Assembly: GCF_964213995.1 (NCBI RefSeq) | Contig: NC_135819.1 | Span: 52,204,001 to 52,268,000 of the forward strand | Source: Mustelus asterias | Taxonomy: Eukaryota | DNA: 64,000 nucleotides | Direction of reading: 5' to 3' | Shown here: one piece after another, positions 5,752-62,494 of the stretch | Layout: the number at the start of each line of letters is the position of its first letter | Position numbering within the stretch: position 1 is the first letter of the stretch | Made by a program: the position numbers and the translations under genes | Notes under the pieces: generated by a model | Told to the model about the DNA's origin: nothing | The model's database searches: none | What the model saw: only the letters and a program-made list of their open reading frames with translations

Positions 5752-6245
5752 CTGAAACAGTACATACAATATTTACAAAAATCTTTAAAATAACAGTACA
5801 AGTAGCTTAACAGTATTATCACTTTTCTACTATACAAGGTCTGCCTGCATCAGGTTTTAGTTAAATAGTGTTTGCATATGTAAAACCATACCATCACAAA
5901 GTAGTTACATAAAAGGGCATCTCAAGAGAAACTAGCACAATGCAATTTTATTTTGTATGAATCAGTAGTTAATTCACTTCCCAGATTTGAAATGCCTAGA
6001 CACAACCAAAGTTAAACTGCAGAATAGAATGTGTTAACTGGGCACAATTATTCTCCATAATTCCTGGGTGCTGACTTCAACTTTGGAGTGATTGATTTCT
6101 GTGGAGCTTTTGCTCAAAGTAAACAACAGCTTCTCCAATGGTTAATCAGCAATCTTCCTCATCCCATGCAGTAGATGGCTTTAGCAAAGGATTAAAGGCA
6201 ACTGCATCAAATGTATTCAAAAATGATATTCATTGCATTCCTTAC

Positions 6246-28195: not shown

Positions 28196-29836
28196 CGTTA
28201 ATAAGGAAGTCTGCTGAAAAATTAATCAAAAAGTCAAGAATAGCTATGCTACCAAAAGTTACAAAAGCATCACAATGACTGCCCAGAAGTTAGAATGGAT
28301 CAAGTAATAAGACAAATAGGATGCAATTGGACAACTCCACTCCTGTGATCCCACTGTTAAATAAATCCTGGGTTATTTTTTCAGTACTGTTTTTGATCTA
28401 CAAAAGAGTCAAGGATTATTGGGGTGGGTAGGGGGCAGGTAGGAAAGTTAACACCATAATCAGATCAGCCATGACCTATTGAATGGTGGAGTAGGTTTGA
28501 TGGGCCAAATGTCCTAATCTTGCTCCTAACTCTCATGCATAAATCCAGCAACACCTTTCCATAACTGTTTCCACTTCAATTATTTCTCATTACTAAACAA
28601 CCCAAGACTAATCTCACTGACCTATGCCCCTTCCAAGTATTTATCCATTTTCCAATAAAATATGGAACCACTGTGTTAATTACTCCTATGGTAAAGCATT
28701 TTATGCTCTACCAACCTGGAGTAAACTATTTTTTTCTAACCTCCTTCTAGCTTTTCCTGTTCCTATGAATATAGTATAAGCATCTCAGGATGTTGCAGTT
28801 GCTTGCAATTCCTTGTATCAGCTTGGTTGAGGTCTGCACTGTACACTTTTTATGGCTTTAATGACCTTTCTACAATAAGGTGCCAAACTTTATGGATACT
28901 TGAACTGGCCTAACAAATAGTTTGTACATTTTAATTATATTAACTCCAGTATTCTATGCCCATAAAAGCCAAAACGCTTTATTTGTTTGAAAAAATGGTT
29001 TTATCTAACTGCAAGTCTGAAGTTCTAACATTTATCAGATCATTTATCAATAATTGTTGAAATTATATCCAGTAAAGTAAATCTCAAAGTAAATGGTACT
29101 ACTTTTGTTTCTTGTACTGTAATATATAAATTTCATAATTTAATCCCTGTACAAATTATACTAAATGTAACTGTTATTGAGGTAAAGATAATCAAAGTGA
29201 ATGTCTATGTTTAGTTCCAAAATGCACCCAAGATGTTGAGTTTGGATGAACTTTGCTCGATTCCTGCATTGATCACGGAAAGTGGCAAACTTCTAGTTTA
29301 AGTTTTCAAATGTCATGGTTCCTTGAGCACATCATCACCAAAAATCACACATGCACTTCCCACTGGGTGATGAATAGAATGAAATCAATTTCTCCCTTTC
29401 TAAGCAAAGCTGGAGGCATACTATTGTGCCCAATTACCACCCAAGCTGAGATCAACTAACCGATTACAAAGCAAAAATTAAAATTGGGATCATTGAACAG
29501 TAGCACTCACTTTACCAAGTGAAACAGAGGAACCCCTGGGTATTTTTTTTCTAAATGAACCTCAATGAACCTCAGTTTCACAAAAAAAAATTTTGAAGTC
29601 AACATATTTGGTTCCCGCTATATACTTTGTATCCTTGACACCAAACCAAGCCCTTAACTGTCATAGCCTGAATTAAGACTGTTTTCAACCATGGCAACCC
29701 TAATCAATATTCTAATCCAATACCTGCTCCAGCACAAGATTTGCCTACTTCCATCGAACATTGCATGCATTCACTCCACTATGGCCCATCTGCAGCTGAA
29801 ACCACCATTGTGCTCTTCACTGGGCTAATGATAGGA

Positions 29837-41473: not shown

Positions 41474-41720
41474 TTATCCTTTTCTCCTTTGTTCATTATG
41501 CGTGTATATTTTTTCTAATACCACTAATTTTGTCTCAGTTTTAATATAAAATGGAGGTAGTTGAGATAAGTTAAATCCAATTCCACTAAAACCAGAAATA
41601 TTAAACATTATCCTATGGGTGTTTCTATACTGCAATATATGTCCTGGATTCATTTCCATTAGGTAGTGTGTATATGTATTGCCTTCAACATCTGGTTTAA
41701 GATCTTCCCTCTTGTCATAT
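41474..41720 (-). CDS. ALG12: ALG12 last coding exon (RYDKREDLKP...YTHYLME...NLSQLPPF...TKLVVLEK...stop)
   Basis: ATATAG acceptor; stop at the ORF end 41474. Summed CDS is 1488 nt, i.e. 495 aa plus stop. Confidence 0.94.
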
Positions 41721-41829
41721 CTATATATCAAAAGGGGAAGGAGGGGGGAAAAAAAATCAAAATTACAATCTTTTCACACCAAAACACGAGTAAACACACT
41801 CAAATTAGGCTTCTTGAATTTCCTTATAA

Positions 41830-42300
41830 CAAAGAACAAAGAAAATAACAGCACACGAACAGGCCCTTCGGCCCTCCAAGCCTGCACCGACCATGCTGCC
41901 CGACTGAACTAAAACCCCCTACCCTCCAGGGACCATATCCCTCTATTCCCATCCTATTCATGTGTTTGTCAAGACGCCCCTTAAAAGTCATTATCGTATC
42001 CGCTTCCACTACCTCCCCTGGCAACGAGTTTCAGGCACCCACTACTCTCTGTGTAAAATCTGCCTCGTACATCTCCTTTAAACCTTGCCCCTCGCACCTT
42101 AAACCTGTGCCCCCTAGTAATTGACTCTTCCACCCTGGGAAAAAGCTTCTGACTATCCACTCTGTCTATGCCTCTCATAATCTTGTAGACTTCTATCAGG
42201 TCGCCCCTCAATCTCTGTCGTTCCAGTGAGAACAAACCAAGTTTCTCCAACCTCTCCTCATAGCTAATGCCCTCCATACCAGGCAACATCCTGGTAAATC
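41830..42300 (-). mobile_element. CR1-type LINE 3' end
   Basis: RFTRMLPGMEGISYEERLEKLGLFSLERQRLRGDLIEVYKIM plus GGGCCGAAGGGCCTGT tail. Confidence 0.88.
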
Positions 42301-44723
42301 TAAAGCAAAATGGAGATTTTAAAGACTTCCCGTCGAACAGTTTATTTTCTTCCCAGCAAAGACAATGGGCCATAACTACTTTGGAGTCGCAATCAGAGTC
42401 AGATTGCCACTCTGTACCTGGCTTGGGTCACTGTCTGTGTAGAGTTTGCATGTTCTACCAATGTCTGCGTGGTTTTCCTCCAGGTGCTCCAGTTTCCTCC
42501 CACAATCCAAAGATGTGTGTGTTAGGTGCATTGGCCATGCTAAATTCTCCCTCAGTGTTACCCGAACAGACAGCGGCAGAGTGTGGCAACTAGGTGATTT
42601 TCACAGTAACTTCATTGCAGTATGAATGTAAGCCTACTTGTGACCAATAATTAAACTTTAAATTTCATTGGTGCCAGTATTATCCAGCCTTCCTGACTCA
42701 GGCCGGGTGAGATCCAAGTATCGCAGCTATCCACGAGGCCTACTGTTGAAGGCTTAGATGGTCAGTGAAGAAGGACCCTCCCCTTTTTTTTGTCACACTA
42801 ACTACTATAAAGCAGGCAAGTTTAAAGGCCCCACTGAAAATGACAGGCCAGGGAGAAGGTAGGGGTGAGGGTGTCAGTTTGGAGGGGTGTGCTCCAGCCT
42901 GGTCATGTGGGTGAGGGCTGTGACGGAATCCTGCCACGATAGGTTGGGGATGAGAGTCAGGCCCGTTGGGATGGTGGGACGGTTAGTTGTCAGGGGGTGT
43001 GAAAGGGAGGGTCGGGATGTGCGGGCATCGGTCTGGGTAATTAAAACAGTTACAGAGAAGTGTGGAGAGGTTTAATTCTAACTTTTTCTGAGCACAACGC
43101 TGGCAGAACCATCTGAAGTTGATGACTTAAATCACTTTCTTAGATGGTGCGCAATGCCCAGGGGAAGTTAGTGCTTCTGGACAGTTGCCATGCAAATGCT
43201 CACCTGGGAAGTTCAGAGAGAGATTGCCCAGTGTGTCTTTGGGGTACCCCCCGTTTCCCCCCCCGCCCAACCCTCCCCGCAAATCCAATCCCAGGGAGCC
43301 CAAATGTTAGCCCAATTATGACCAAGTCTTGAATTCTCACAAACATCATGGATTTGTGACTATTTATTATTTAGAGATATCTCTACTTGTAAAAAAATGA
43401 GTGCCATACCATTTACCATTCCAATTCAGAATCATGGGGAAACTTTCACTTCCAGCAGAAGCACTTATGGATTAGCCACGCTTCATATATGTCACTCAAT
43501 TTTCCCTTTCTATTGTCTTTAAAAATTGGATGGAATGAACAACAGAGAGCCAATTCATAGCTAACTGCTTCCTGCCCACACCAAAAGTAAAAATTGGCCC
43601 ACTTAATCTTAAAGCAGAGGAGCACAAGAATCCCTCCCCTTGTGTCAGCTCACAGTTCCACTATCCATAAGCTATTTTCCAAATTGATCCATTATCAATT
43701 ATCTATTGGAGGCACTAGAATTGGGGACACAGTTTAAGAATAAGAGGTCTCCCAGTTAAGATGGTATGGGCGGCACGGTGGCACAGTGGTTAGCACTGCT
43801 GCTTCACAGTGTCAGGGACCTGGGTTCAATTCTCAGCTTAGGTCACTGACTGTGCGGAGTCTACACGTACTCCTCCTGTCTGCGTGGGTTTCTTCCGGGT
43901 GCTCCGGTTTCCTCCCACAATCTGAAAGACATGCTGGTTAGGTGCATTGGCTATGTTAAATTCTCTTTGTGTACCCGAACAGGCGTATAGCCAATGCACC
44001 TAACCAGCACGTCTTTCAGACAGTGGGAGGAAACCAGAGCACCCGGAGAAAACCCAGGGTGCACAGGGAGAACGTGCAGACTCCACACATAGTGACCCAG
44101 GGAGAATGTGCAGATTCCGCACAGACAGTGACCCCAAGTCGGGAATCAAACCGTGTGAGGCAACTATGCTAATCACTGTGCCACCATGCCACCTCTTAGA
44201 TAAGATCCTAAACAGTCTTCACAAGGTGGATGTGGAGAGAATGTTTCCTCTTGTGGGAGAGTCTAGTGGGCACTATTTTAAAATTAGAGGTCACCCTTTT
44301 AGGACAGAGGGGGGTCATGTAACTTTGGAACTCCCTGCCTCAGGAGGCAATGGAGGCAGTGTCACTGAATATTTTTAATATGGAGGCAAGATTGATTCCT
44401 TTGCCTAACAAGAATCTAAGGTTATCGTGGGTAGATTGAATGTGGATCAGCCATGATCTTATTGAATGACAGAGCATGCTCGAGGGCTCAAATGGTCTAC
44501 TTCTACTTGATAATTAGTTTGAGCTGTTTCACTAAAGATAAAAGAAAAATGGACAGAATACAAAATGAAATGAAATGGAGGGGAATTGGAGAACAAAAGG
44601 ATAGGGGGAGGTAATTAATGCAACTGTAATGACATTATTTCAAATAAGGAAATGCCTTTGTTTCATTAAAAATTCCAATTAATACCAAAACAAACATTGA
44701 ATATCCATTAGAAAATAACTTAC

Positions 44724-44799
44724 CTCCAACTTGGACTGAGTTCAAGGAATCGGGTAACACCAGTCTGTGCAGAAGCAACATCAATGTGCATGGAAACAG
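44724..44799 (-). CDS. ALG12: ALG12 coding exon 8 (AVSMHIDVASAQTGVTRFLELSPSW)
   Basis: CCACCAG acceptor, GTAAG donor, 76 nt; HIDxxxAQTGVxRF motif. Confidence 0.94.
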
Positions 44800-47700
44800 C
44801 TGGTGGGAAAGATGGAGGCGAGAGTGAAACTAGGAAGAATCCTCATGAAATATTCACTTGAAATTTGTTTCACAACTGTTAATAAGCAATATTGTGCATA
44901 ATATAGGAGAAATAGAACAAACGCAATTTAAGACACCAGTAAAAAAGTTGAGACACACAATTTAAAACTAAAAGGAAATATTAAGGTGTGAAGGGTAATT
45001 AACTGGAAGGATAGTAGAACTATCGCGTTGTATGAAGTTGGCAATACTAAGCGTCAAAAGTTGGGAATTCAAATGAATCTTGTCTACACTGAAATGCAAG
45101 GCATAGTATGCAGACTGGGTCAGTGCTGGACTAGAAGCTCTGGGTTTGAATCCAGTTGTTGGCCACAGAAGGAGTGTTCATAACATGGATTCAATGGACT
45201 GATAATCACCTTGGGAATCCTTCCACCACTGTCTCCATCATTCCCCAAAGGGTATAAAACAGTGTGGGTGTGAAGATGGGCTAAAAGAAACCCGAGGCTT
45301 CAGATGAAGACTTGCTGACTGGATGAGACTTACCAAGGAATCAATGGAGTGCTCTGGCTAACGCCTGAAGACCATCTGTGTAACTGCATATGAAAATGTT
45401 CACTAAACCTTCACGTCGTGAGTGAACTCTGAATTATGAAACTTTATTAGTCACATATTTGAAGTTGACAGCCACACCTATATAGGTCATGTCAAGGTGG
45501 CTGCAATTGATGTAGATCGAAAGAACATTCCTACATGCATTCAAATGTTGTTCCAATTCAAATTCCCAATAAAGATATTTCCTCAAAGCTGGACAGTTTA
45601 AACCTGCAACTCCTACAGACATTATATGAATGAGACTATAACTTTCCACAGGAAGTATATGATCTCCATCTTTTTCAACCAGTGGGGACGCAAAATAAAG
45701 ACAAAGGAAAATCACATTTCCTCTTGCACAACTCCTACTGACCAGCCTCAGAATGGTGGCTGCGTAACACAGACAACACATCACTCGCCTAACCCCTCAC
45801 CTAAAAACCTTTAAATGACCAAGGGAAATTGGCTTGATTATTTAGTTAATGTGCAAATTATGCCAATAAAGCATTAATCGTTTGCAATAATCAGGAAAAA
45901 ATATAAATAATGCAATGTTTTTTAACTATAATAACCAAAACAATTCATGACTAAAATAAGAACACAAGAACTAGGAGCAGGAATAGGCCATCTGGCTCCT
46001 CGAGCCTGCTCCACCATTCAATAAGATCATGGCTGATCTTTTTGTAGACTCAGCTCCACTTACCCGTCCGCTCACCATAGCCCTTAATCCCTTTACTGTT
46101 CAAAAAATTTATCTATCCTTGCCTTAAAAAACATTCAATGAGGTAGCCTCAACTGCTTCACTGGGCAGGGAATTCCACAGATTCACAACCCTTTGGGTGA
46201 ATCACATATCAAAAAACTCGAGGCTAAAATGAATTCATGTAACTATACAATGTTGTGATAGATTCCTGATGACATAGTGGCTCATTCCAGAAAAATAGCT
46301 GCCTTTAAATGCTTCACATATTGCTCACTATTTCACGCTCGTGAGTAAATTAGAGGCTGATTCGCCAAAACACTAAGCACCCAGATGTTGTGTAACAGAT
46401 CCCGATTTATTATCTGCATAAACTCTTGGAGCTCCATCTCAGCGGACGAGTTTTCCTACAACAGCAATTTTGATTAAGTCTTAATTGTATATGTGGACTG
46501 GGTGTTCTTCAGTTTCATTGCTGATATAATTGAGGTGACAGTTCATATTGTTGTTTAGCCTCCTACACAAAACAATGGAAGTGCCAGTACACATGTAAAT
46601 GTCATCCAGCGCTTGTTTTGCTGACTCTGCCGTGCTCTAATTCTTGGTAGCAAGCATGCAACTGGTTGGTTTATGAATAGGTAATATCAAATGTTTGTCA
46701 GTGACAGTTCTGACATAATACATGGGCAGCCCTTAGATAGTTCTAAGGAATTGGAAGCTCGATGCGCTGGCCCTTTATTTTTGTGCACCCTGACACCAGG
46801 ACAAACTTAAGCACTACAATAAAGCAATATTATTATCGTAATATTAACACAAAACTACTAAAATAAAAACACTTCAATAAAAGTGCACTTGCCCCTTCTT
46901 CATTTCACTCCCTCATTATTCTCCCTTTGTTTCAACTTTTAATTTTATTAAACTTAAATGCATTATTATGACCTAACAGTTCTTTCTTTTGTAACATTAA
47001 TTAAATAATACTATCTGTGTTGTTCTGCCTCAAGTTTATCTGTTTTGAAGACAAGATCTGAATTGAACAATTTCATCTTTGATTGGCTATGAATCATTTT
47101 TGATATTTAAAGTTTATTTATTAGTGTCACAAGAAGGCTTACATTAACACTGTAATGAAGCCACTGTGAAAATCCCCAAGCCACTGCACTCTGGTGCCTG
47201 TTCGGGTACACTGAGGGAGAATTTAACATGGCCAATGCACCTAACCAGCACGTCTTTCGGGTTCTGGAAGGAAACTGGAGCACTCGGAGGAAATCCATGC
47301 AGACGCGGGGAAAATGTGCGGACTCCACATAGACAGTGACCCAATCCGGGAATTGAACTCAGGTCCCTTGCGCTATGAGGCAACAATGCTAACCACTGTG
47401 CCACCCCAAGCTCAGATGTACGAGGAAACAATGTGGACGGAAGTGTAAAGAGCACAATTGCTGTAAATGCAAGTCAATGTTGTAATATCAGTCTTACCAC
47501 ACTCAAACTTATATTGTGGTGTACCGATATCTTATTTCGCAAAGGTTGGCAAGTCACGCCATTAATGGAGGACACCACTCATTGTAAACAAACTATCCCT
47601 AATTAAAAATCATTACCAATGGGCTTATTTTTACACAACTGTAAAATGTAATATCTTGCAGTGTCCGCCAACCTTCATGGAAAACAGATCGTGAACAGGT

Positions 47701-47872
47701 GGACACCACACACTCATATGTCATGGTCAGCTGGGCATGTACCGAAGATCTAAGCATGAATAAGCAGTCATAGAGATCTTCCCCAGTCACTTTACATAAC
47801 CTGTATTTGTACGACATATTTCACAAGCATGGTTTCCTTATCAAGATATTTTAGCATAGCAGGGTAACAGAC

Positions 47873-48042
47873 CTGTTGCTGGAGGCACAGTCTCATGTAG
47901 CTTTTGCATGGCGACTCCACCAGGGTAGTTGTGGTGGGACACATACAGTAGCATCCCAGTGTAGCAGGCATTTGCCAGTAGATGTGTGATCACAACCAAG
48001 GATCCTAACTTGTACAAAAGTGACTTGCGGTAATTGATCATT
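47873..48042 (-). CDS. ALG12: ALG12 coding exon 7 ([14 protein letters not shown]...[24 protein letters not shown])
   Basis: GCACAG acceptor, GTCTG donor, 170 nt; NYPGG motif. Confidence 0.93.
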
Positions 48043-48759
48043 CTGTGCAACAGAAGAAATATAATTAACAATGTGCTTTTACCAGTCATTATATTTAGGA
48101 ACACAGGCAGAGTATGCTATTCACACCCTCAAATCCATTGGACCATGGCTGATCTGTACTTCAAATTCCCCTCTCCTGGCATTTTGCCATATCCTTTAAT
48201 AATTTTACATGATCCATTTCAGTTTTTCAAATTTCAAATGACCAGAACCCACAAGCCTTTTGAGAGAGCAAGTTCCAGACTTTCTCTATCCTTCTCTGTC
48301 AAGAAGTTTTTTTAAATTTCAGTTCAAAATGGCCCAGTTCCAATTTAAAGATAATGCTATTTTGGTTTGGAATCCCCAATCGGTAGAAACTGCTTCTCTA
48401 TATCTATCTTACTGAATCTCCTTATCATTTTGAACACCCTGATTAATTAACCATCAATATTCCAAATGTTCAGAAATAAAAAAGTCAAGTCAAGCTTGGG
48501 ACTAGTAATATGCTATTGAATCTATACGATACCCTCCCAATATAAACTTCCAAGTATATATTTCCTAATATTTGGTGATCAAAACTTAATGCAGTGTCCC
48601 AGAAGAAGTCTGACCAAGGCTACACAAAGCATAAGCATCATTGCTTCACTGTTCACCCACCATTAGATAACGATCACATCCTTTTAGTTTTGTGTGCATG
48701 GACATCTAAATTCCTTTGCTTCATTATAGCCTAAAATCTTTCACCATTATTAAAATATC

Positions 48760-48995
48760 CTGAAACAAAAGCAGAAAATGCTGGAAAATCTCAGCAGGTC
48801 TGACAGCACCTCTGGAGCGAGAATAGAGCCAGCGTTTCGAGTCTGGGTGACCCTTTGTCAGAGCAACGAAGGGTCATCCAGACTCGAAACATTGGCTCTA
48901 TTCTCCCTCCACAGATGCTGTCAGACCTGCTGAGATTTGCCAGCATTTTCTGTTTTTGTTTCAGATTCCAGCATCCACAGTATTTTGCTTTTATT
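48760..48995. mobile_element. Fold-back (palindromic) element made of two inverted Penelope-type 3' ends with degenerate hammerhead cores
   Basis: Arms of about 105 bp are near-perfect reverse complements around about 48862; each carries a decayed version of CTGACGA-A-GGGTC-ATCCA-GACTC-GAAAC. Related pieces at about 1630-1720, 4875-4960, 17660-17770, 21620-21795, 31860-32310, 58150-58369 and 62027-62082. Confidence 0.75.
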
Positions 48996-50018
48996 TTAAT
49001 GAAGTATTCTGTTCTGCTTTCCTCAGATCCAAAGTCTATGACCACACTCAACTCTATCTGCCACAGTTTTGCTCACTCACCTAGTTTATCGCCGTTGCCA
49101 CTGGCTGCTCCTATATATGCCAACATTGGACAGAATTTTCCCATCCCATCCACAGGAATTGTAGTGGGTGGGACATGGACCATGCAGAGTATTGCTGACC
49201 TCGGGTGGGATTTTCCGGCATTGTGGTGAGCATGGCCGGAAAATCCTGCCAATAGTGTCTCCTAATTTAGTGTAATCCGCAAGGCATACAATTCTCTATT
49301 GCTTTATCCAGGCCATTGGTACACAGGGTGAAAAGCTGAGGCCCTTGTCCAGATCCTTGGGAACATCACTGGTCACATCCCACCAAATAGAGAATGGAAG
49401 CTTTAGCCTGTTTCTTCCACCCAACTAACCACTCTTGGCACAAGTTTACCTCTAATTTCATGCTTTAGCTTTGCACCCTTGTACAAAAGATACTGGGTCT
49501 GATCCCAGTTCATCACAAGTACAATGAAGGCAGTTACTTCATTCTGCTAAGAGTAGGTTTTTATAAAGAATTAAGTTCAGGAAATTTGTCTCATATATTT
49601 GCACATTATAAGAAAATACCACTTTGCCATTCTGAAACTATTGCTGTATTAGCATATTAAAAATACAATCAGGCTATAACTAATATAATGTAAATTCCCC
49701 AATAAGATCCTTGCAATTTTGTTTTCTGTCCATCTCACAGTCCTTTCTAAATTGAATTAAATGAACACACATCTGCCATTTTGGGTGGGAAAATATACTT
49801 GGGAGGGCAATTGTTATTGGAGAAACAATAATACGAATAAATTTGCACAGACTTATTCAGTGTTGCACAGCCAGATAGCATGTGAAAATGTGGGCTTAAC
49901 ACTCCTACTAAAGCAGTACCAGTTTATGACAAATCTCTCTCACCACCTGCATTTGCCTTCCAAAAAATAGTCAAATCAAACTCCTGACTTTTTAAGTTCA
50001 ATGACATTGAGTACTTAC

Positions 50019-50242
50019 ACGGACGAACACCCAATCGCTGCAATGATATTCAAGATAGGAAAAGTGTAAATTATGAAGCGCAACTCCTTGTGAGGTAGGA
50101 ATGAATATAGAAAGATGAAACCAAGTGTTGGGAAGAGTAACCTCCAACTCCTTCGATCCCTGGCCCCAAGAGGCAGAAAGGTTATACTGCAGCCAAGGGC
50201 ACGAGGCAGCACCGAGTAAAAATACCAGAAAAAGGGTAAGGT
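50019..50242 (-). CDS. ALG12: ALG12 coding exon 6 ([17 protein letters not shown]...[11 protein letters not shown]...)
   Basis: PHKELRF motif; U12 branch site TTCCTTGAC upstream of the AG; GTAAG donor; 224 nt. Confidence 0.95.
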
Positions 50243-52510
50243 CTGAATAGATTCTCAGTCAAGGAAACACAAAAAACTTAAGTCATTAAAGTAAAATTAC
50301 ATTTGGAGAGCCAGCAAGTAATGGTGCAGCCTATCAAATGGAAATCAATTGAAATTAGTCAAGGATAGTGAGTGATTGTCAAGCCCATAGAACTCAATTG
50401 ATCCTCAAATTTCTTTCAAGAGACAACTTCCAATGCTCTCATTAATGGGTTAGATACAGAGAAAAGCTCCCTCAACTCTGTTCCAAAAATGTTTTCCCCA
50501 GCCAAAGGATGTGGTAGGCAATGGAACATTTCCCAGACCAGGCGTGCAGGAGTCTAGTGAGTGATAAATCATGGATAGCTTATGTTGTGGATTCCAAGTC
50601 CATTAACAACTAGAATGGTTTCACAGATTCTTATAGCCAGAAGGTAATAGACGTTTGCAACATTAATCTACACTGGATTTGAGCCTATACCCATCAGGGG
50701 AAAGAAGTGTAACCCATGGTATCAATTAGTTCCACTGGCATCACCTCTAAAATTAAAACTTTTTTTTGATAAAGCAATCTGTTTCTCAAAGCCATTTGGT
50801 ACTGAGAAGCAGAACGTTTCGTTGAAAAAGATCACACTTCTCTGAACAAATCACAATCTCACCATGACAATTTTATAGGGATAACTTTTACGATTATGCT
50901 TTCCTATCACAAAAAGCTCACCTGCCAGAAATGTACATTAGGAATTCTCTGTTTGTAGCTCAAAATTTTCCACCTACTAATTTTACTTGATGAAAAATCC
51001 CAGACTCCAAAAAAGAATTCCTAAAGTATGCTCCCGGCAGTAGATGCTATGGCAAATGCATGCAATTAGAACATTTTCAGGTTATAAACAGAATTGTGTG
51101 ACAAAGCTACAAACATCTCGATCATTTTAGTGAAGTGATCTAGTGTTAAGTGGCAGAAAGTGACTTCTAGCACATAGCTTTATAATTACTGGTGAACCTT
51201 AAAATCATATTAGAAGCAAGAGCCTAATGATATTTTTTCCTTCGATTCTAATGCTGACAATAAATGATGGAGATGGTATCACACAAGCTTTCGTGGTTCA
51301 CAACCTTCAGTTTTTCTTTATCTGTTCACAGGATATGGATGTCGCTGGCAAGGCCAACATTTATTGCCCATTCTTAACTGTTCTGAGAAGGTAGTGGTGA
51401 GCTACCTTTTGGAACCATTGTAGTCGGAGTGGTGTAGGTGCACACACAATGCCGTGATGTAGAGTAGTCCATCTGGTTTTGACCTTGTTGCAGTAATCTG
51501 ATGCAATTGAGTGGCTGATATCGTTTCAAAGGACAAAGGTCAATCAGGTTGCTGTGGGTTTTTGATTCACATGGAGACCAGACTATGTATGTGTTAATTG
51601 TATAGTAATTTGAGTGTTTAATTATAGTCAGGTGGTGGGCATTAGCTAGGGACTCACTTGTGTTCCTATTTATAGTGCGGTCTGAAACTGTAGGGATGGG
51701 GTTTGGATTTGTACTTTTGTAATATGTATTTCTGTAAATACAAGTTCAGAGGTTACAGATGGAAGATTAGGTTCCAGTTTTATCCTTCATTGCTTGATTT
51801 CTGGATAGCAGAGTAAGACTTCACTTAAGGACACTGGGAAATCAGAAAGGATTTTATGACAACTTGATGATTAAGTAAATAGGGAATTATCTGTTCCCCA
51901 ACTACCATGTCTTAAGATCATTAGTCCAATAACATAACCATTAAGCTACCAGGTTTCATTCTCATTCATGCTGATTTTTCTATGCTGGCAACTGCCATTA
52001 TAATAATGCCTTCACCCTTTGTTTTTCTCACCAATGTGTGACAACACCCACACTAATAAATGAATAATTGTAATATTTCAAGTTAATAGTGATAATCGCA
52101 GATTGCATGGAAATAAGACAGTCAGCATATCTCATATTTAACCTAATATGTAGTGAGATCTTCAGCCAGAGAGTGGTGAATCTGTGGAACTCTTTGCCGC
52201 AGAAGGCAGTGGAGGCCAGGTCATTGAGTGCCTTTAAGACAGAGATAGATAGGTTCTCGATTAATAAGGGGGTCAGGGGTTATGGGGCAAAGGCAGGAGA
52301 ATGGGGAGAGAAAAGTATCAGCCATGATTGAATGGCGGAGCAGACTCGATGGGCCGAGTGGCCTAGTTCAGCTCCTATGTCTTAAGGTCTATGGAGATAT
52401 AAATTATATATTCCCAGTGAAGACAATCACAATTAAAATAAACATTTTAACTTTTAAGAATTTTGTTTTTGAGTTCTTCTACAGTGATCTGAAGACCGTG
52501 TAAAGGATAG
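50243..52510 (-). other. U12-type (minor spliceosome) intron of ALG12 with apparent CT...AG termini
   Basis: 5' end CTATCCTTTA against the consensus RTATCCTTT; branch TTCCTTGAC at 50258-50266 close to the AG; no polypyrimidine tract. Confidence 0.85.
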
Positions 52511-52614
52511 TCCCCATTTGGAGCTCTTATTCAAGACTGTGTTGTACCAAAGTACTTCTCCCTCAGGCCATAGAAGACGTCGCCAAAATATAGAATCCAC
52601 ACACACAGTTAGGC
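52511..52614 (-). CDS. ALG12: ALG12 coding exon 5 ([35 protein letters not shown])
   Basis: TTTCAG acceptor, 104 nt, hand translation; followed by the U12-type donor CTATCCTTT. Confidence 0.93.
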
Positions 52615-52717
52615 CTGAAATGAAACACATCAGATGTTACTATTTGTGTTCATTTGGTTGTATGCACAAGTCTTTCAATTCAAGTCACTGTCAAAGAACA
52701 AACAGTAAATGACTTAC

Positions 52718-52912
52718 CCAACCACACCAAACCAGCTGGCACTGCATGGCACAGGGTTTTGGAAATAGAAATACGATGGGTCACTAATGATAGCAGCAGC
52801 ATGAGGCCCAGGAATACGCAAAGTTCAGATCGGAACACAATGATAGATAAAGCAGAAAGCCAGATAAAGGTGCCGTGGTTCTGTTTCATCCAGGCAGTAA
52901 ACGCCAAGATAA
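52718..52912 (-). CDS. ALG12: ALG12 coding exon 4 (VILAFTAW...[14 protein letters not shown]...AVPAGLVWL)
   Basis: TTGCAG acceptor, GTAAG donor, 195 nt. Confidence 0.95.
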
Positions 52913-53717
52913 CTGCAACATACATAAAATAGACAGTTTTCAAATCAATGTGCCCCCTTAAAGACTATGTGCCTATAGAAATGTTTCCCAGAGAAAGCCT
53001 TCTCTGGAAGAAAAATGTTTGCATATGAACATGTAATAATTTAGAACAATTTCAAATCTTAATTTCAGTCCAGCGTAGTTCCATTATTAGACATATTTTC
53101 AGTCATTACCTTCACTAGACAGCCTTGGCTCACCAGCAAGCAGTTAGCTCTGTCAGAAGATTGTGAGTTCATGTCCCATTACAACAGTTGAGTGTATAAT
53201 CTAAGCTGGCATGTTGGTGCAGTTCTGAGGGAGTCCTGTGCTCTGCGAAGTTTTGACTTTCAGATGAGACATTAAGCTAAGGCCCTGTTTTCACACTCAT
53301 GGACAAAAAAGATCCCCAGGCCCAATTCAAAGAAGTTCTCCCAATTACTACACCTCAAAAAGTACTTAATTTTTTATTAAGTGCTTTGCGAAGTCCTGAG
53401 ATTATGACAAGTACTATATAAATGCAGGCACTTTTTATTATATATATATATTATATATTAATTTTAAACATGTTTATTTTTAATTAAACATCTAATTTCA
53501 GGTGATACTGTCCCAGAGTGTGAACCAAAGATGGAGTCTGCTCCAAGATGAGCATCCAGCCTCATTACCTCCACCCTTCTAGTAAGGTTTCAGTAAGAAG
53601 ATTTGAGCCATATGATGGCAAAAACTTCATTTTGTGCCTTCTACTATTTCAATGTGACTCATGAATGGCACAAAACAAATGTATTTCCATCACCACATTG
53701 CTACACTGTATTTAACA

Positions 53718-54060
53718 GGCACGGTAGCACAGTGGTTAGCACTGCTGCTTCACAGCTCCAGGGACCTGGGTTCGATTCCCGGCTTGGGTCACTGTCTGTG
53801 TGGAGTTTGCACATTCTCCTCGTGTCTACGTGGGTTTCCTCCGGGTGCTCCGGTTTCCTCCCATTGTCCAAAGATGTGCGGGTTAGGTTGATTGGCCATG
53901 CTAAAATTGTCCTTAGTGTCCTGAGATGCGTAGGTTAGAGGGATTAGTGGGTAAATATGTAGGGATATGGGGGTAGGGCCTGGGTGGGATTGTGGTCGGT
54001 GCAGACTCGATGGGCCGAATGGCCTCTTTCTGTGCTGTAGGGTTTCTATGATTCTATGAT
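53718..54060 (+). mobile_element. Full-length tRNA-derived V-domain SINE (HE1-like) with CR1-type tail; similar copies at about 60-230(-), 231-455(+), 24175-24520(+), 32005-32255(-), 36180-36460(-)
   Basis: A box GGTAGCACAGTGG, B box GGTTCGATTCC, central GTGGAGTTTGCACATTCTCC...GGGTTTCCTCCGGGTGCTCCGGTTTCCTCCCAC, tail GATGGGCCGAATGGCC...CTATGATTCTATGA. Confidence 0.85.
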
Positions 54061-54285
54061 AAAAGAGATTGTTAAGAAATATATTATAAACAGCTTACTG
54101 TTAAATTATAAATACGTACAGACATTTTTCAGCACTCATGATATCTCCTGAACTTCGCAGAATCCATTATAGAAATGAAATACAGTTTATATATTTACAA
54201 ATTTATTAGTGTGGCAAGCCAGTTTACAATGGACTGCATTTCCACAAAAAAATTAAACTAATAAGAATGGCAACACTGCACTCAC

Positions 54286-54459
54286 CAATAGGAAATGCAA
54301 ATATATTTGGGAGAGTTCTAGAGCAATAGAAGAGAAGATGAAACTGGGTTGCTGAGATCCAACAGTAAAAAGAAGCTGCAGTCGAGCCAAACTGCTTCCT
54401 AACTTCTTTCTGAAGCATCCACAGTGCGTAAATCACACAGAGACCCAGGCATCCTCGAA
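54286..54459 (-). CDS. ALG12: ALG12 coding exon 3 (VRGCLGL...[20 protein letters not shown])
   Basis: AACAG acceptor, GTGAG donor, 174 nt. Confidence 0.95.
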
Positions 54460-54523
54460 CTGTTAAAAAACACAGAGGAAGCTGAACACAATTCAATATT
54501 CTTTCATTAACAGGCATCATGAT

Positions 54524-54830
54524 TAAAAGTTTAAAGTTTATTTATTAGTGTCACAAGTAGGCCTACATTAACACCGCAATGAAGTTACTGTGAAAATCCC
54601 CTAGTCGCCACACTCCGACGCCTGTTCGGGTACACTGAGGGAGAATTTAGCATGGCCAATGCACCCTAACCAGCACATCTTTCGGACTGTGGGAGGAAAC
54701 CGGAGCACCCGGAGGAAACCAACGCAGACACGGGGAGAACGTGCAAACTCCACACAGACAGTGACCCAAGCCGGGAATCGAACCCAGGTCCCTGGTGCTG
54801 TGAGGCAGCAGTGCTGACCACTGTGCCACC
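54524..54830 (-). mobile_element. tRNA-derived V-domain SINE, second tail type; copies at about 7240-7477(-), 34412-34690(+), 39264-39552(+), 39956-40254(+), 42415-42660(+), 43770-43985(+), 43990-44190(-), 47108-47405(-), 57570-57860(+)
   Basis: Same head and core as above, but the tail is CTCCCTCAGTGTACCCGAACAGGCG..GGAGTGTGGCGACTAGGGGATTTTCACAGTAACTTCATTGC...GTGACACTAATAAATAAAC. Confidence 0.85.
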
Positions 54831-56129
54831 GGTGATGCTTTTTGGAAGATGGACACTTTGCTTCAAAAAAAAGCAGTATAGAATATGCACACTGTACCTT
54901 GATCAGGTGTACTCTAGAGGGGTCAGTTGACTTTTTATGGTTTCTATGCAGACAGGGACTAACTTCATGTCTGTACAAATCTCTGAAAAGTCAATAAATG
55001 TAAATGGCCTCCAAGTGCTTATGACCGCCCTATCTGTTTGAACTGAAAAGACTTAAATTAACAATGGCTGCCATACTTGCTGACACAATGAAGATGGGAT
55101 TTCAAATAAAGACATATGGGAGGCTGGAATGTTGATGGGATATCATTCATTCTCCATTTTGCGTCAATTTTATCTGCCATATTTTCTTTTCATTCTATGG
55201 ACAATGAAAAGCATCAATGCTGTTGTCACATTGCTGAAACTGGCTGGAGTTAGCCAATATGTTATTAATCGATAAGAGCAGCCCAGTGGGTCAGTCTGAG
55301 ACACAACGACAAGAAGGGAACCATTTCTCATCCAGCATAAGATTGGACCCTGCTTCAAAAAGAAAGTAATCTCAGGCAGTGAAGTGAGGCTAATTCATTT
55401 TACCTGCAGGATCATAAATTGTTACTACAGGAGCTCGGCCACAATTTCATCTCAAAGAGCCAGAAATCTCCAACCTCCACTGTCTGCAGTGAACCAAGAG
55501 AGAATCATTCAAGCCTGCAACATTTCAATCATCATCTTAAGGACTGTTTAAAAATGTGATGTGATTCTTTTACCCTTTTCAGTAATTTAGATGTTACCTC
55601 TGAGGAAATAGTTTTTCTTGAGTATGTGTGTATTTAGTATGTGTTGTGATTACATTTCAGGTATTGTGCAAAATAAATATTTACCCTCTCCTTTGATTTA
55701 AACTTACGTGATGGCCTGCTTCCTGTCTATTCTATAAATCAAGCGGTTAAAATACTCCTTCTCAAAAATTTTTTTTTTTTGTGCTCAGCCAAGGCATGAG
55801 AAAAGGGGGGGAAACTATCCCACTTCTCTCCCCATATGTAACAATAAGTATTACATCTCTGATTAAAAAAGCTGAAGATCACAAGGTGCACTTATTATAT
55901 AGTCCGATTATACCCTGTTTATCAACTGGAAGCAGTCATTAATTAGAAATTATAACAACTCTTGTATCTTCAATTCTCTGGTACTAAATGGCTTCCAGTC
56001 AGATCTGTTAATGGATGGGAGATCATGGAGCATAATTTGCTGTGACAGGGTATCAAACGAGTCTGCCTTTATTAGATTCTCTTTGTGTATTTAGGTTTGT
56101 GTATTTGGATGGTGATCTGAACTGATATC

Positions 56130-56590
56130 TGGGATGAGGGAGTTATCTTATAAGGAAAGGTTAAAAAGGCCCAGTCTGTATCCATTGGAGTTTAGAAGAT
56201 TGAGAGGAGATCTTATTGAGACATGTAGGTTCCCAAAGGGATTTGACAGAGTGGATGCTGAAGGGATGTTCCCCCCTGTGAGAGAGACTAAAACAAGGGG
56301 ACACAGTTTAAACATAAGGGGTCCTCCATATAAGACAAAAATTAGAAGGTTTCTTCTCTCCGAGGGTCATGAATCTTTGGAACTTTCTTCCCCAGAGAGC
56401 GTTGAGGGAGGTTCAATTAATATTTTTAAGGCAGAGGTAGATAGATTCTTGACTAACAAGGGAGTTAAAGGTTAACGGAGTAGGCTGGATGTAGAATTGA
56501 GACCACAACAAGATCAGCCATGATCTTGTCGAATGGCAAGAACAGGCTGGAGGGGCTAAATGGTCTAGTCCTACTAGTTCATTTTTTGTA
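56130..56590 (+). mobile_element. CR1-type LINE 3' end; similar fragments at about 455-895(-), 9170-9720(-), 20870-21290(+), 35060-35560(+), 45960-46200(-), 52155-52390(+)
   Basis: LSYKERLK...LEFRRLRGDLIET; shared GATCAGCCATGATC..GAATGG..GAGCAGGCTCGAGGGG 3' UTR. Confidence 0.8.
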
Positions 56591-58369
56591 TGTTTTAAGA
56601 ATTTTCACCTAGTGAGTTATTGAAAAGGTAAGTTGATAATGTTGTATTGAGGGAAATAGGGCATTTGGAAACTGAGTGAACAGGGAAGACAACTCTGCAT
56701 CCCCTTAGCCAAATTGAAGGATTGTGAAATTATCAGCAAAAGTGCAAATTAGAGTAGTTGAATTGGCTATGCTAAATTGCCCCTTAAGTGTCCCAAGATG
56801 TGTAGGTTAGGGGGATTAGCACCTGGGTAAGATACTCAGTTGGAGTGTTGGTTAATGGGCCGAATGGCCTCCTGCTGCACTGTAATTGTTCTATGTTTTA
56901 GGTTAGCAATGTAAAACAACCCAACAACATAAATTTAGCATCAAACACATGTGGTGTAGTCAAACAAGACATTTTCCAATATATTTTGTTTATCAATTGT
57001 ATCAATTAGAAAACTAGAATATTCCAGCTATCATCCCCTTTTTAACATCCAGCTGATTTTTGAAAATGGAATATCTAGTCCTAAGAGGATCTCAGTGCTT
57101 TGGTCCAAAATGAGCACCAACCATTCTGACACAGCCTGCACACTACAATATACTACTCTGTGTGAATGTGCCAACGTTGAATGTTTTGTTGGGCCACAAC
57201 CAGAATCAGGCCATGAAAGCCATGTTATAAGCTGAACCAATCATTTCTATTTAGAAATAGCTCAGAAGGATTTACTGACAAGATGTTCATTTACTATAAT
57301 GATTCATACACTTAAATAATAAACTGGATCAACCACTGAGAGTATTTTCACTGAGGCAGGAATAGAGGGTGAAGAGAGATTCCAAATACGATGGGTGGTA
57401 TTTTCCGGCCACGCTCGCCCCAAAATCCCACGTGAGATCAACGGACCTTTGCATGGCTGTGACCTGCTACAATTCCCGTGGTGGGCAGGACAGGAAAATT
57501 CCCGATATCAATAAGACAGCATTCGTTATACTAGTGTCAATAGTCAGGAGTGGGGCTGTCTATGTATAGTAGCACAGTGGTTAGCACTACTGCCTCACAG
57601 TGCCAGGGACCCGGGTTCAATTCCCAGCTTGGGTCACTATCTGTGCGGAGTCTGCACGTTCTCCCCGTGTCTGCATGGGTTTCCTCCGAGTGCTCCAGTT
57701 TCCTCCCACAGTCTAAAATACGTGCTGGTTAGGTGCATTGGTCATGCTAAATTCTCCCTCGGTGTACCCAAACAAGCACCAGAGTGTCGTGACTAAAGGA
57801 TTTTCACAGTAACTTCAGTACAGTGTTAATGTAAGGTTACTTGTGACATTAATAAATAAATAGTATAGGTCTCACAGACCGTTCACTCCACAGTGGAAAC
57901 AACTGATTAAAGCAATTTCTCGAAAATAAAATTGAGGCAATAGAACTGCAATTATTACAAACACACATACATGCAGTTGTAGTAAAAATATCTCAATGTC
58001 ATGCAGCATATTAAACTGTTTTTGTCAAGTTTCATGCAAAAAATATGAAACACAGCGTTTTTTTAAAAACATGCTTCGACCATTCCCGAGATTTCTCTCC
58101 ATTTCGAAATCAACTGCATAGACTAAGACTGCAATGAAATTTAACTTAATAAAGGTAAAATACTGCATATACTGGAATCTGAAACAGAAAATGTTGGAAA
58201 AACTCAGCAAGTCTGACAGTATCTGTGAAGAGAGAATAGGGCCAATGTTTCGAATCAGGATCACAGCTAAAAGTAAATAAAGAGCTAAAGACATCCCCCC
58301 ATAGTATAAATCTCATCCTATTTTCTTTGTCTTTAGCTCTGACTGAGGGTCATCCAGACTCGAAATATT

Positions 58370-59198
58370 GGGCCCCATTTTACCATTTTGATTCTAAGTG
58401 CTGGATGGACTTGAATCTAGGAGTGTTTCAGACCCGACCTTTAGACCCATTCTCAAGACGGGCATACGCACTTTGCCTGAAAAAATATCAGTGATTCCGA
58501 ATCGCGCTGCACAAGCCTGTGGGTGGGACTTAACGCGTTCGAAATCCTGCAGCTCCGATCAGCACCTCCAACTGCGCATGTGCAGAAAAAAAAGATAGAA
58601 TGCAGCTCCCCTGCCACATCCCTCCCAGGCCGAATAATGCCTCCCCCTGGCCCCCACAAACATTGCTCCGCCCCACAACATTACTGACCCCCTTATTCCC
58701 CCAACCCCTGCCACCCAGACCGATCGCGGCCCCCAGCCCATTTCCCCCCCACCGATCTCAGGCAGTGTGGCAGCGGACCCCCGCCTTCCCCTTCATTGAT
58801 CACAGGCAGAGTTCGAGCAGACCACCCCCCCACCGATCTCAAGCAGAGAGCCGTCGGACACTCGGCACTTACCTCCTCACTAACTGGAGCACCCAAATCG
58901 GACTTTTGGAGAGCATGTCTGTTTCACGCCGATTCTGGATGGGCGAACGTGGTGGTAAAGGGGGAAATATCAGTGAGGTTGGGGATGCAGCCCATTAAGT
59001 CAATTTAAATGCATGCAAATATATTTAAATGGCGGTCACGCCAGTTTCGGGCACGGTCCTGATCGCAGCCATTTTCGGGCCTTGGTAAAGGGGGAACTGG
59101 CGCGGAGTTGGGCGCAGATCGCGCTACTCTCTTCACGCCCGACTTTACCAAGTTTTCGCACCTGAAAATAGGTGCAACACAATGGTAAAATCGGGCCC
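58370..59198. mobile_element. Non-autonomous TIR DNA transposon (PIF/Harbinger-like MITE)
   Basis: TIRs GGGCCCCATTTTACCATT ... AATGGTAAAATCGGGCCC (one mismatch); no transposase ORF. Confidence 0.75.
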
Positions 59199-59310
59199 GC
59201 TGGCTCTATTCTCTCTCGATGTGGAGATGCCGGCGTTGGACTGGGGTAAACACAGTAAGAGTTTTAACAACATCAGGTTAAAGTCCAACAGGTTTATTTG
59301 GTAGCAAATG

Positions 59311-59347
59311 CCATTAGCTTTCGGAGCCCTGCTCCTTCGTCAGATGG
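59311..59347 (-). ncRNA. Minimal type I hammerhead ribozyme motif, inverted-arm copy
   Basis: Reverse complement is identical to the 61931-61967 motif. Confidence 0.75.
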
Positions 59348-61930
59348 AGTGGATATCTGCTCCCAAACAAGGCACGCAGAGACACAAAATCAATTTACAG
59401 AATACTGATTAGAATGCGAATCTTTACAGCGAATCAAGTCTTAAAGATACAGACAATGTGAGTGGAGGGAGCATTAGGCACAGGTTAAAGAAATGTGTAT
59501 TGTTTCCGGACAGGACAGCCAGTGAGATTCTGCAAGTCCAGGAGGCAAGCTGTGGGGGTTACCGATAGTGTGACACGAACCCAACATCCCGGTTTAGGCC
59601 ATCCTCATGTGTGCGGAACTTGGCTATCACTTTCTGCTCAGCGACTCTGCGCTGTCGTGTGTCGTGAAGGCCGCCTTGGAGAACGCTTACCCGAAGATCA
59701 GAGACTGAATGCCCGTGACCGCTGAAGTGCTCCCCAACAGGAAGAGAACAGTCTTGCCTGGTGATTGTCAAGCGGTGTTCATTCATCCATTGTCGTAGCA
59801 TCTGCATGGTTTCCCCAATGTAGCATGCCTCGGGACATCCTTTCCTGCAGCGTATCAGGTAGACAATGTTGGCCAAGTAGGTACCATGTACCTGGTAGAT
59901 GGTGTTCTCACATGAGATGATAGCATCCGTGTCGATGATCCAGCACGTCTTGCAGAGGTTGCTGCGGCAGGGTTGTGTGGTGTCGTGGTCACTGTTCGCC
60001 TGAAGGCTGGGTAGTTTGCTGCGGACAATGGTCTGTTTGAGGTTGTGCGGTTGTTTGAAGGCAAGAGGTGGGGGTGTGGGGATGGCCGTGGCGAGATGTT
60101 AGTCTTCATCAATGACATGTTGAAGGCTCCGGAGGAGATGCCGTAGCTTCTCCACTCCGGGGAAGTACAGGACGACGAAGGGTACTCTGTCCACCATGTC
60201 CCGTGTTTGTCTTCTGAGGAGGTCGGTGCGGTTTTTCGCTGTGGTGCGTCGGAACTGTCGATCGACGAGTCGAGCGCCATATCCTGTTCTTATGAGGGCA
60301 TCTTTCAGCATCTGGAGGTATCGGTTGCGATCCTCCTCATCCGAGCAGATCCTGTGTTTACGGAGGGCTTGCCTATAGGGGATGGCTTCTTTAACGTGTT
60401 TAGGGTGGAAGCTGGAGAAGTGGAGCATCGTGAGGTGATCCGTGGGCTTGCGGTACAGTGAGGTGCTGAGGTGACCGTCCTTAATGGAGATGTGTGTGTC
60501 CAAGAATGCAACCGATCCCGGAGAGTGGTCCATGGTGAGTCTGATGGTGGGATGGAACTTGTTGATGTCATCATACAGTTGTTTCAGTGATTGTTCACCA
60601 TGAGTCCAAAGGAAGAAAATGTCATCGATGTATCTAGCGTATAGCATTGGTTGAAGGTCCTCTGCGGTGAAGAAGTCTTGTTCGAACCTGTGCATGAAGA
60701 TGTTGGCATATTGAGGTGCGAATTTGGTCCCCGTGGCTGTTTCGTGTGTCTGGATGAAAAACTGGTTGTTGAAGGTGAAGACATTGTGGTCCAGGATGAA
60801 GTGGATGAGTTGTAAAATTGCATCTGGAAACTGGCAGTTGTCGGCGTTGAGTACTGAGGCTGTTGCAGCGATCGCCATTTCCGACGCGCCACAGCGAAAA
60901 ACCGCACCGACCTCCTCAGAAGACAAACACGGGACATTGTGGACAGAGTACCCTTCATCGTCCAGTACTTCCCCGGAGCGGAGAAGCTACGGCATCTCCT
61001 CCGGAGGCTTCAACATGTCATTGATGAAGACGAACATCTCACCAAGGCCATCCCCACACCCCCACTTCTTGCCTTCAAACAACTGCAGAACCTCAAACAG
61101 ACCATTGTCCGCAGCAAACTACCCAGCCTTCAGTGACCACGACACCACACAACCCTGCCACAGCAACCTCTGCAAGTTGTGCCGGATCATCGACACGGAT
61201 GCTATCATCTCACGTGAGAACACCATCTACCAGGTACACGGTATCTACTCTTGCAACTCGGCCAATGTTGTCTACCTGATACGCTGCAGGAAAGGATGTC
61301 CCGAGGTATGGTACATTGGGGAAACCATGCAGACGCTACGACAATGGATGAATGAACACTGCTCGACAATCACCAGGCAAGACTGTTCTCTTCCTGTTGG
61401 GGAGCACTTCAGCGGTCACGGGCATTCAGTCTCTGATCTTCGCATAAGCGTTCTCCAAGGCGGCCTTCACGACACACGACAGCGCAGAGTCGCTGAGCAG
61501 AAACTGATAGCCAAGTTCCGCACACATGAGGACGGCCTAAACCGGGATGTTGGGTTCGTGTCACACTATCGGTAACCCCCACAGCTTGCCTCCTGGACTT
61601 GCAGAATCTCACTGGCTGTCCTGTCTGGAGACAATACACATTTCTTTAACCTGTGCCTATTGCTCTCTCCACTCACACTGTCTGTATCTTTAAGGCTTGA
61701 TTAGCTGTAAAGATTCGCATTCTAATCAGTATTCTGTAAATTGATTTTGTGTCTCTGTGTGCCTTGTTTGGGTGTGGAGATGCCGGTGTTGGACTGGGGT
61801 AAACACAGTAAGAAGTTTAACAACACCAGGTTAAAGTCCAACTGGCTTTTGCTACCAAATAAACCTGTTGGACTTTAACCTGGTGTTGTTAAACTTCTTA
61901 CTGTGCCTTGTTTGGGAGCAGATATCCACT

Positions 61931-61967
61931 CCATCTGACGAAGGAGCAGGGCTCCGAAAGCTAATGG
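61931..61967 (+). ncRNA. Minimal type I hammerhead ribozyme motif in the Penelope 3' repeat
   Basis: CCAT-CTGACGA-A-GGAGC-AGG-GCTCC-GAAA-GCT-A-ATGG: stem I CCAT/ATGG, CUGANGA and GAAA cores, 5-bp stem II, palindromic AGCT stem III. Confidence 0.75.
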
Positions 61968-62109
61968 CATTTGCTACCAAATAAACCTGTTGGACTTTAA
62001 CCTGGTGTTGTTAAAACTCTTAGTCCATTCTCTCTCCACAGATACTGTCAGACCTGCTGAGATTTTCCAACATTTTCTGTTTAACTTCATATAAGTTCGT
62101 CAGACATAC

Positions 62110-62242
62110 CTAGAAGTTGTGAGTAAAACTTGGACACGCCTAGAGCTGAGAGGATGGCAGCTGCTGGAGCAGACAGCAGTGAAATAAAAAGTGGCCCCAC
62201 GAAGGTCCTGGGGACGACACCGGGAAACTCGTGGTGGTCGTA
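62110..62242 (-). CDS. ALG12: ALG12 coding exon 2 ([17 protein letters not shown]...SKFYSQLL)
   Basis: TTCGCAG acceptor after an 87-nt intron, GTATG donor, 133 nt; [14 protein letters not shown] motif. Confidence 0.95.
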
Positions 62243-62329
62243 CTGCGAAAAAGAGAAGCCTCAGTAAGTGAAACAGACAAGAAATGGATAGCGTGCCAAT
62301 TGCAGTCTGGCTAGCTGGTGAACAAGTAC

Positions 62330-62494
62330 CTTGTCCAGGTGCAGGCGGTGGTACAGCAAGTCGTGCGCCGCTTGCAGGTTGAAACTTTCCTCCACTTTAG
62401 TGAAGGGACAAGCCAGCAGGTGAAGGGAAGCGAGCAGAAGCAGAAGTAGCAGGAGAAACACTTCCCTTTGCGCATCCCGGCTCCTCTCAGCCAT
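62330..62494 (-). CDS. ALG12: ALG12 first coding exon (MAERSRD...[27 protein letters not shown])
   Basis: [13 protein letters not shown] motif of the ALG12 alpha-1,6-mannosyltransferase; ATG at 62494, GTACT donor. Confidence 0.94.

Follow-up and report, generated by a model that had tools for sequence, protein, structure and literature searches.

A U12-type intron with CT-AG termini in the ALG12 gene of the shark Mustelus asterias

The ALG12 locus

The stretch of DNA analysed here, hereafter the window, comprises 64,000 nucleotides of the Mustelus asterias genome (NCBI RefSeq assembly GCF_964213995.1, contig NC_135819.1, positions 52,204,001 to 52,268,000). It houses on its minus strand a gene that had been predicted from the sequence to be ALG12, the loss of which causes a glycosylation disorder in people. 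The identity is borne out by the exon downstream of the intron under study, which matches ALG12 and PF03901, and by the names in NCBI records, the best match being XP_078091672.1, labelled Mustelus asterias. A coding region of nine exons, running from 62494 to 41474 and specifying 495 amino acids, was modelled from the window as follows (exon boundaries from the gene model).

41474..62494, minus strand: ALG12 coding region (gene model, PF03901, NCBI names)
62494-62330, minus strand: exon 1
62242-62110, minus strand: exon 2
54459-54286, minus strand: exon 3
52912-52718, minus strand: exon 4
52614-52511, minus strand: exon 5, ending ...KSSKWG (no other letters in the contigs X3 and X9 described below)
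50242-50019, minus strand: exon 6, starting TLPFFWYF (no other letters in X3, two in X9)
48042-47873, minus strand: exon 7
44799-44724, minus strand: exon 8
41720-41474, minus strand: exon 9

The ALG12 gene here is intact and single-copy, exon 5 having one match across the 3.68 Gb genome. Apart from intron 5, all of its introns (7/7) are GT-AG, and the donor of intron 7 at 47872 (GTCTGT) is a weak U2-type site. Intron 6 contains a MITE-like self-inverted repeat of 205 bp, 88% alike, at 48760-48964. Intron 2 contains, at 59559-61575, disrupted frames of reverse transcriptase and GIY-YIG-like type, which occupy both strands as an inverted pair and are presumably Penelope-like. Elsewhere in the window, minus-strand exons of a PHD-finger gene, taken from their translation to be of BRPF/BRD1 type, lie at 26825-28225 and 5213-5806, with a GC-rich start near 33-34 kb. 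In humans ZBED4 lies between BRD1 and ALG12; between 34 and 41 kb of the window no long ZBED4-like open reading frame was seen.

Termini and splice signals of intron 5

The features of intron 5 are these.

50243..52510, minus strand: ALG12 intron 5, 2268 nt, phase 0, U12-type, CT-AG termini (spliced-contig joint 50242-52511 and gene model)
52502..52510, minus strand: 5' splice site CTATCCTTT, U12 consensus at +2..+9 with C at +1 (52510)
50258..50266, minus strand: U12-type branch site TTCCTTGAC, predicted branch A at 50259 (-17), from the motif and its pairing with U12
50243..50245, minus strand: 3' splice site CAG, no polypyrimidine tract (sequence and spliced contigs)

Read on the minus strand, the intron starts at 52510 with CTATCCTTTA and ends at 50243 with TTCCTTGACTGAGAATCTATTCAG. 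Exon 5 ends ...AAA TGG GGA (52511), the intron then follows as CTATCCTTTACA, and exon 6 starts ACC TTA CCC (50242), which places the phase 0 junction between Gly257 and Thr258. The original prediction had described a CT donor with no GT or GC at the junction, a missing polypyrimidine tract and U12-type signals, and all three hold. The nearest GC lies 14 nt upstream of the donor junction and the nearest GT 14 nt downstream, both out of frame; pyrimidines make up 0.53 of positions -20..-4, where the other seven introns have 0.65-0.82; and TATCCTTT occupies +2..+9 of the junction fixed by the contigs, with TATCCTT at +2..+8, while TTCCTTGAC, the sole TTCCTTRAC of the window, occupies -24..-16. 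Neither motif is rare alone, since the window contains nine copies of TATCCTTT against 3.55 expected and one TTCCTTRAC against 1.68 expected. Their placement at an independently fixed junction nevertheless exceeds chance: the probability of finding both so placed is, by the authors' own estimate, about 7e-5 x 4e-4 = 3e-8 per junction.

The U12-type class is defined not by the terminal dinucleotides but by the donor and branch site (PMC3584512, in the part consulted). Judged by its donor, its branch site and the missing pyrimidine tract, intron 5 is U12-type and fits neither standard subtype, the GT-AG and AT-AC subtypes having a purine at +1 where this intron has C (52510). Both the GT or GC donor and the pyrimidine tract of a U2-type intron are absent. 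From the predicted branch A to the end of the intron is 16 nt, a short distance that nonetheless exceeds the optimum of 11-13 nt given in the same part of PMC3584512. Two further dinucleotides nearby are candidate 3' ends, an AG whose last base is at -11 and an AC whose last base is at +2. RNA folding around the donor was unremarkable (z 0.25).

Spliced contigs and the exact joint

Continuity of the protein had been held to fix the junction, but it does not, because an in-frame AT-AC junction also exists 2 nt further on; it is the spliced contigs that decide. Four of the 21 public runs listed were examined (X3, X5, X9 and X12), all as assembled contigs and none recorded as RNA. X3 and X9 were taken as RNA because their contigs are spliced across two introns, and X5 and X12 are DNA-like. 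X3 derives from organism A (also the label of the best-matching runs), X5 from organism B, X9 from organism C and X12 from organism D. X3 and X9 thus represent two organisms and two studies, and X3 comes from another sample than the assembled individual.

In X3 a contig of 1938 nt (depth 9.87) aligns as three pieces, 52913-52717, 52613-52511 and 50242-50019, with no other letters; in X9 a contig of 3000 nt (depth 18) has the same three-piece structure. Both contain the 52511-to-50242 joint that had been proposed as a check, skipping 2268 bases with ends CT..AG and no ambiguous letters, so that a CT donor is joined to an AG acceptor in an intact gene, as had been predicted. The joint is present in both runs with spliced contigs (2/2) and in neither DNA-like run (0/2). 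Among the 15 joints listed (there are 23 weaker ones besides) no other joint was seen near the donor or acceptor, though contigs drop rare forms, and minor products may accompany the main one, for example a frameshifting CT-AC product removable by decay. Intron pieces occur in X3 and X9 at depth 3-5 with no contig bridging the donor, and contig depth is no measure of intron retention.

Two artefacts were considered and rejected. A retrocopy as the source of the spliced contig is at odds with the single genomic match of exon 5 and with the lack of the joint in X5 and X12. The reverse-strand artefact known for CT-AC introns does not apply: the motifs share the minus strand with the gene, and the reverse complement of CT-AG is again CT-AG.

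The public gene model and a 2-nt slide

If both ends of the intron are slid by 2 nt, an in-frame AT-AC intron results, and the peptide across the junction becomes WG-L-LP instead of WG-T-LP.

50241..52508, minus strand: shifted AT-AC intron implied by the NCBI model, giving Leu258; absent from the spliced contigs; the sole consensus junction reproducing P0001

The NCBI protein XP_078091672.1 (P0001) equals the translation across this shifted junction at 495/495 residues, and the CT-AG translation differs from it at residue 258 alone, with Thr for Leu. The public model therefore avoids the CT donor, and the expectation that standard annotation would mis-model the intron was correct. It could be argued instead that the model is right, the true intron being the AT-AC form at 52508-50241, with a Gly-Leu-Leu peptide and the RNA junction GGACTCTTA; such an intron is in frame, has consensus termini and accounts for every residue of the NCBI protein. 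Very little credence can be given to this, however: both spliced contigs (2/2) join 52511 to 50242, where they show neither ambiguous letters nor mismatches, and neither gives the Gly-Leu-Leu junction; ATCCTTTA, the donor after the shift, does not line up with the U12 consensus; and Thr stands at this position in 239 of 253 spliced-type homologues. The junction is accordingly placed at CT-AG rather than AT-AC because X3 and X9 both join 52511 to 50242, and low-level use of the shifted junction may accompany it.

The error is of a repeatable kind, in which a non-consensus minor intron is slid by 2 nt to a false AT-AC intron, leaving one residue wrong in public records. Introns slid in this way would be hidden from surveys based on annotation.

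Authenticity of C at +1

The contigs of X3 and X9 stop short of intron base +1 and those of X12 short of the donor, so the C and the joint are never seen together in one run. It might be supposed that the C arose in assembly or marks a rare allele, and that the transcribed allele carries GT or AT, since X3 is from another sample and does not cover +1, and the runs compared consist of assembled contigs. The DNA of organism B differs by about 3% in the intron. A contig of X5 spans the donor (52340-52930) with nine other letters and no gaps, and the tally of all changes in X5 contains one G>C, at 51170, and no G>T. The plus-strand letter at 52510 being G, both G and A are excluded at +1 in organism B; T would still fit, there being 21 places with G>A, few of them among those listed. 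Assembly error is therefore an unlikely source of the C. Furthermore, Leu stands at the junction residue in the models of three other species, and a skate-like read-through carries Leu as well, so that an error or rare allele is scarcely credible.

Of the 185 places at which X5 differs, 40 were listed, and none of these falls between 50238 and 50305, though neighbouring differences from the same contig appear among them; this hints that the branch site and AG may be kept in organism B. The preferred reading, to which a probability of about 0.9 is assigned, is that intron 5 is an ancient minor (U12-type) ALG12 intron whose first base is here C, and which is cut at CT...AG to give the normal Gly-Thr, presumably by the minor spliceosome.

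At 50238, in codon 2 of exon 6, Leu is encoded here and in organism C, and Ser in organisms B and D and in most homologues, a lineage-specific change beside the acceptor.

Age and spread of C at +1

To place the intron among its homologues, 403 distinct proteins (clusters, not species) were compared, 398 of which carry the junction motif, 253 as spliced-type and 145 as read-through-type sequences. The junction residue of the spliced type is T in 239, V in 9, L in 4 and I in 1. The first residue of the read-throughs is V in 121 (GT), I in 22 (AT), L in 1 and T in 1, and the tripeptide is VSF in 90, ISF in 21 and LSF in 1. VSF and ISF together, the signature of RTATCCTT, make up 111 of the 145, which marks the orthologous intron as U12-type elsewhere. 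VSF in the lizard Lerista (P0038) and in the beaver (P0173) indicates GT at +1, and ISF in paddlefish and sturgeon sequences (P0050, P0152, P0161, P0162 and P0165) indicates AT. The mis-models of the latter splice a later GT directly to TSPF; so far as gene models can be relied on, the acceptor would then be AG and the termini AT-AG.

NCBI and UniRef models were available for 22 elasmobranch species; one cluster of 21 has 15 members among those listed. Thr stands at the junction residue in 18 of the 22, as it does in the chimaera Callorhinchus, and Leu in four, Mustelus asterias, Cetorhinus maximus, Heptranchias perlo and Narcine bancroftii, which span four orders (Carcharhiniformes, Lamniformes, Hexanchiformes and Torpediniformes). 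Since, after the 2-nt slide, the codon consists of base +1 followed by T and C, Leu in these models would imply C at +1 if the same artefact is at work. The lone LSF read-through, P0263, is a 60-residue peptide from one contig that reads WG-LSF and is identical at 34/34 residues to exon 5 of the skate cluster, which includes Leucoraja erinacea; its Leu codon could be CTA or TTA. The full-length models of the skate cluster read Thr where P0263 reads Leu, so Thr models do not prove canonical ends. No further LSF read-through was present among the best 150 of 737 representatives, no V or I read-through came closer than 29/34 to any elasmobranch, and no non-elasmobranch among the 398 proteins had Leu at the junction. 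Taken with the models of the four species, this indicates indirectly that C at +1 is probably old in sharks and rays and not peculiar to Mustelus asterias.

The simplest explanation of this distribution, and the one towards which the evidence leans, would be a single substitution to C before sharks and rays diverged, roughly 250-300 million years ago. The splice could also be real and the C donor recent and of multiple origins (or the Leu residues true replacements of Thr), with most sharks and rays having GT or AT. The majority of Thr models favours such a history, as do the gecko models with Val or Ile at the junction residue, where changes evidently occur, and the finding that non-canonical minor intron termini often switch between human and mouse (PMC1557818, in the part consulted). 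However, a skate model reads Thr where a skate-identical read-through reads Leu, Leu is confined to elasmobranchs among the 398 proteins, ACC to CTC takes two changes, and four or five separate origins at one site of a state with a frequency of 0.04% are improbable. Repeated origin is accordingly regarded as unlikely, though far from negligible.

A single ancestral change would fit a broader picture, judged slightly better than an even bet, in which a C-starting ALG12 minor intron has been fixed since the shark-ray ancestor with the AG-spliced form as its main product, tetrapods then having GT-AG, sturgeons AT-AG and elasmobranchs CT-AG termini, so that matching of first to last base would be dispensable here. 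On the homologues compared, this intron seems unusually tolerant at +1, with G in tetrapods, A in sturgeons and paddlefish and C in this shark, the AG 3' end apparently being kept.

The geckos Sphaerodactylus (P0034) and Euleptes (P0048) have Val and Ile, respectively, in place of the near-invariant Thr, through either true changes or a 2-nt slide over non-consensus ends.

Relation to known minor introns

A C at the 5' end of a minor intron was reportedly called highly deleterious in the mutational work of Dietrich in 2005. According to the parts consulted of Lin et al. 2010 (PMC2831892), CU-AC was spliced correctly but less well in Dietrich et al. 2005, and natural CT-AC minor introns exist in mouse and rat Trappc9. 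Like the shark ALG12 intron, that of Trappc9 is a natural minor intron with C at +1 whose orthologues elsewhere have consensus termini. It differs in ending with AC, whereas the shark intron ends with AG and the AC 2 nt downstream is unused in the contigs seen; and it is reported there in two rodents, while the C of shark ALG12 is probably common to sharks and rays.

Among conserved animal minor introns, numbering 73,671 by the present summation of Table S1 of Larue and Roy 2023 (PMC10639083), the material consulted contains two CT-AG, 24 CT-AC and two CT-AT introns. The two CT-AG entries have the same terminal pair as shark ALG12, but are given there with no gene or species names and no transcript check; none of six chondrichthyan genera is named in the available supplement text, and the two entries could be shark ALG12 or others. 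In the portion consulted of Sheth et al. 2006 (PMC1557818), non-canonical RT-RN U12-type introns make up about 5% of minor introns, are often mis-mapped and switch termini frequently; all 66 listed (66/66) start with a purine and none with C, unlike the shark ALG12 intron. Human ALG12 is itself listed as a minor-intron gene (chr22:49907945-49909243; PMC7507305, listing consulted in part), and the listed intron would be the same as shark intron 5. Mammals and lizards read GT at +1 (the beaver P0173 has WG-VSF at the same position), where the shark has C. ALG12 was not found in the searched text and supplements of PMC1557818, PMC2831892, Moyer 2020, Parada 2014 (PMC4176328) and de Wolf 2021 (PMC8280824). 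No report of the shark ALG12 intron was found in the literature searched; subscription journals, bioRxiv supplements, U12DB, IAOD and MIDB, which lay outside the search, may list it. C at +1 of a minor intron was thus already known, and the CT-AG pair is about as rare as any tabulated; shark ALG12 adds a case that is backed by transcripts, probably deeply conserved and demonstrably misannotated.

In mutational work a C at +1 makes for a poor substrate; the housekeeping gene ALG12 nevertheless uses such an intron, with transcript support. Loss of CENATAC affects minor introns starting with A and few of those starting with G, on a basis described as unknown in the parts consulted of PMC11874965 and PMC8280824. 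If the present reading is true, the shark ALG12 intron is a natural third ('C-type') substrate for studying how +1 is read, and the G, A and C found at one orthologous intron form a ready-made experiment on that reading, which also bears on the judging of +1 variants in human minor introns.

Proposed mechanism of splicing

The genome contains matches to the genes of the minor snRNAs, two for U11, 22 for U6atac and six for U12 (four of them over the cut-off). The U6atac matches include head-to-head pairs on C25 and C20, and many are probably retrocopies. The 5' end of the genome's U11 pairs with the donor over 7 bp (+3..+9, with one G-U), U6atac over 6 bp (+4..+9), and U12 pairs with TTCCTTGAC over 10 bp with A50259 looped out. 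The pairing stretches are ordinary and no compensating snRNA change was seen in them. The zinc finger of shark SNRNP48 keeps the C/H metal ligands in comparison with the human chain. In the alignment C+1 faces G19 of U6atac, with which it could pair. This G19 later joins the catalytic triplex. It is tempting to speculate that pairing of C+1 with G19 might either help the hand-over from U11 or slow activation, thus braking ALG12 output.

On these grounds, intron 5 would be removed by the minor spliceosome, which would set the cut through pairing of U11 and then U6atac at about +4..+9 and of U12 at the branch site. The first three intron bases stay unpaired with U11 and are read by U11-48K (PMC3584512, in the part consulted); a residue map for +1 was not found in the available part of the U11 structure preprint (bioRxiv 10.1101/2023.12.22.573053). 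Since the register would be set independently of +1, a C there may be tolerated in an intron whose branch site and remaining donor bases are near-perfect. Downstream of the branch A, the first AG with a workable spacing would serve as acceptor: the AG at -11 follows that A by just 5 nt and use of the AC at +2 would cause a frameshift, which leaves the AG at -1. Splicing would probably be less efficient than that of a GT-AG intron, and sufficient for a housekeeping enzyme.

The joint might alternatively be made by the major spliceosome, by recursive steps or by RNA editing of +1 (C to U, giving UU-AG), and A-to-I editing of non-canonical termini has been reported (PMC4176328, in the part consulted). 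Any such route appears very improbable, given that the joint has no U2-type donor or pyrimidine tract, that the U12 branch site is strong and pairing with the minor snRNAs full, that neither G nor A can be made from C by simple editing, and that no intermediate joint occurs among those listed. Removal by the minor spliceosome thus remains the preferred route.

As a control for relaxation of minor splicing in general, 35 loci of two families and one further stretch were inspected. They contain two recognisable U12 donors at exon ends, one AT and one GT-AG, a sample too small to argue against general relaxation. Loci L040 and L049, taken to be ALG6-like (AT donor) and ALG8-like (GT donor), respectively, have their U12 donors at matching places.
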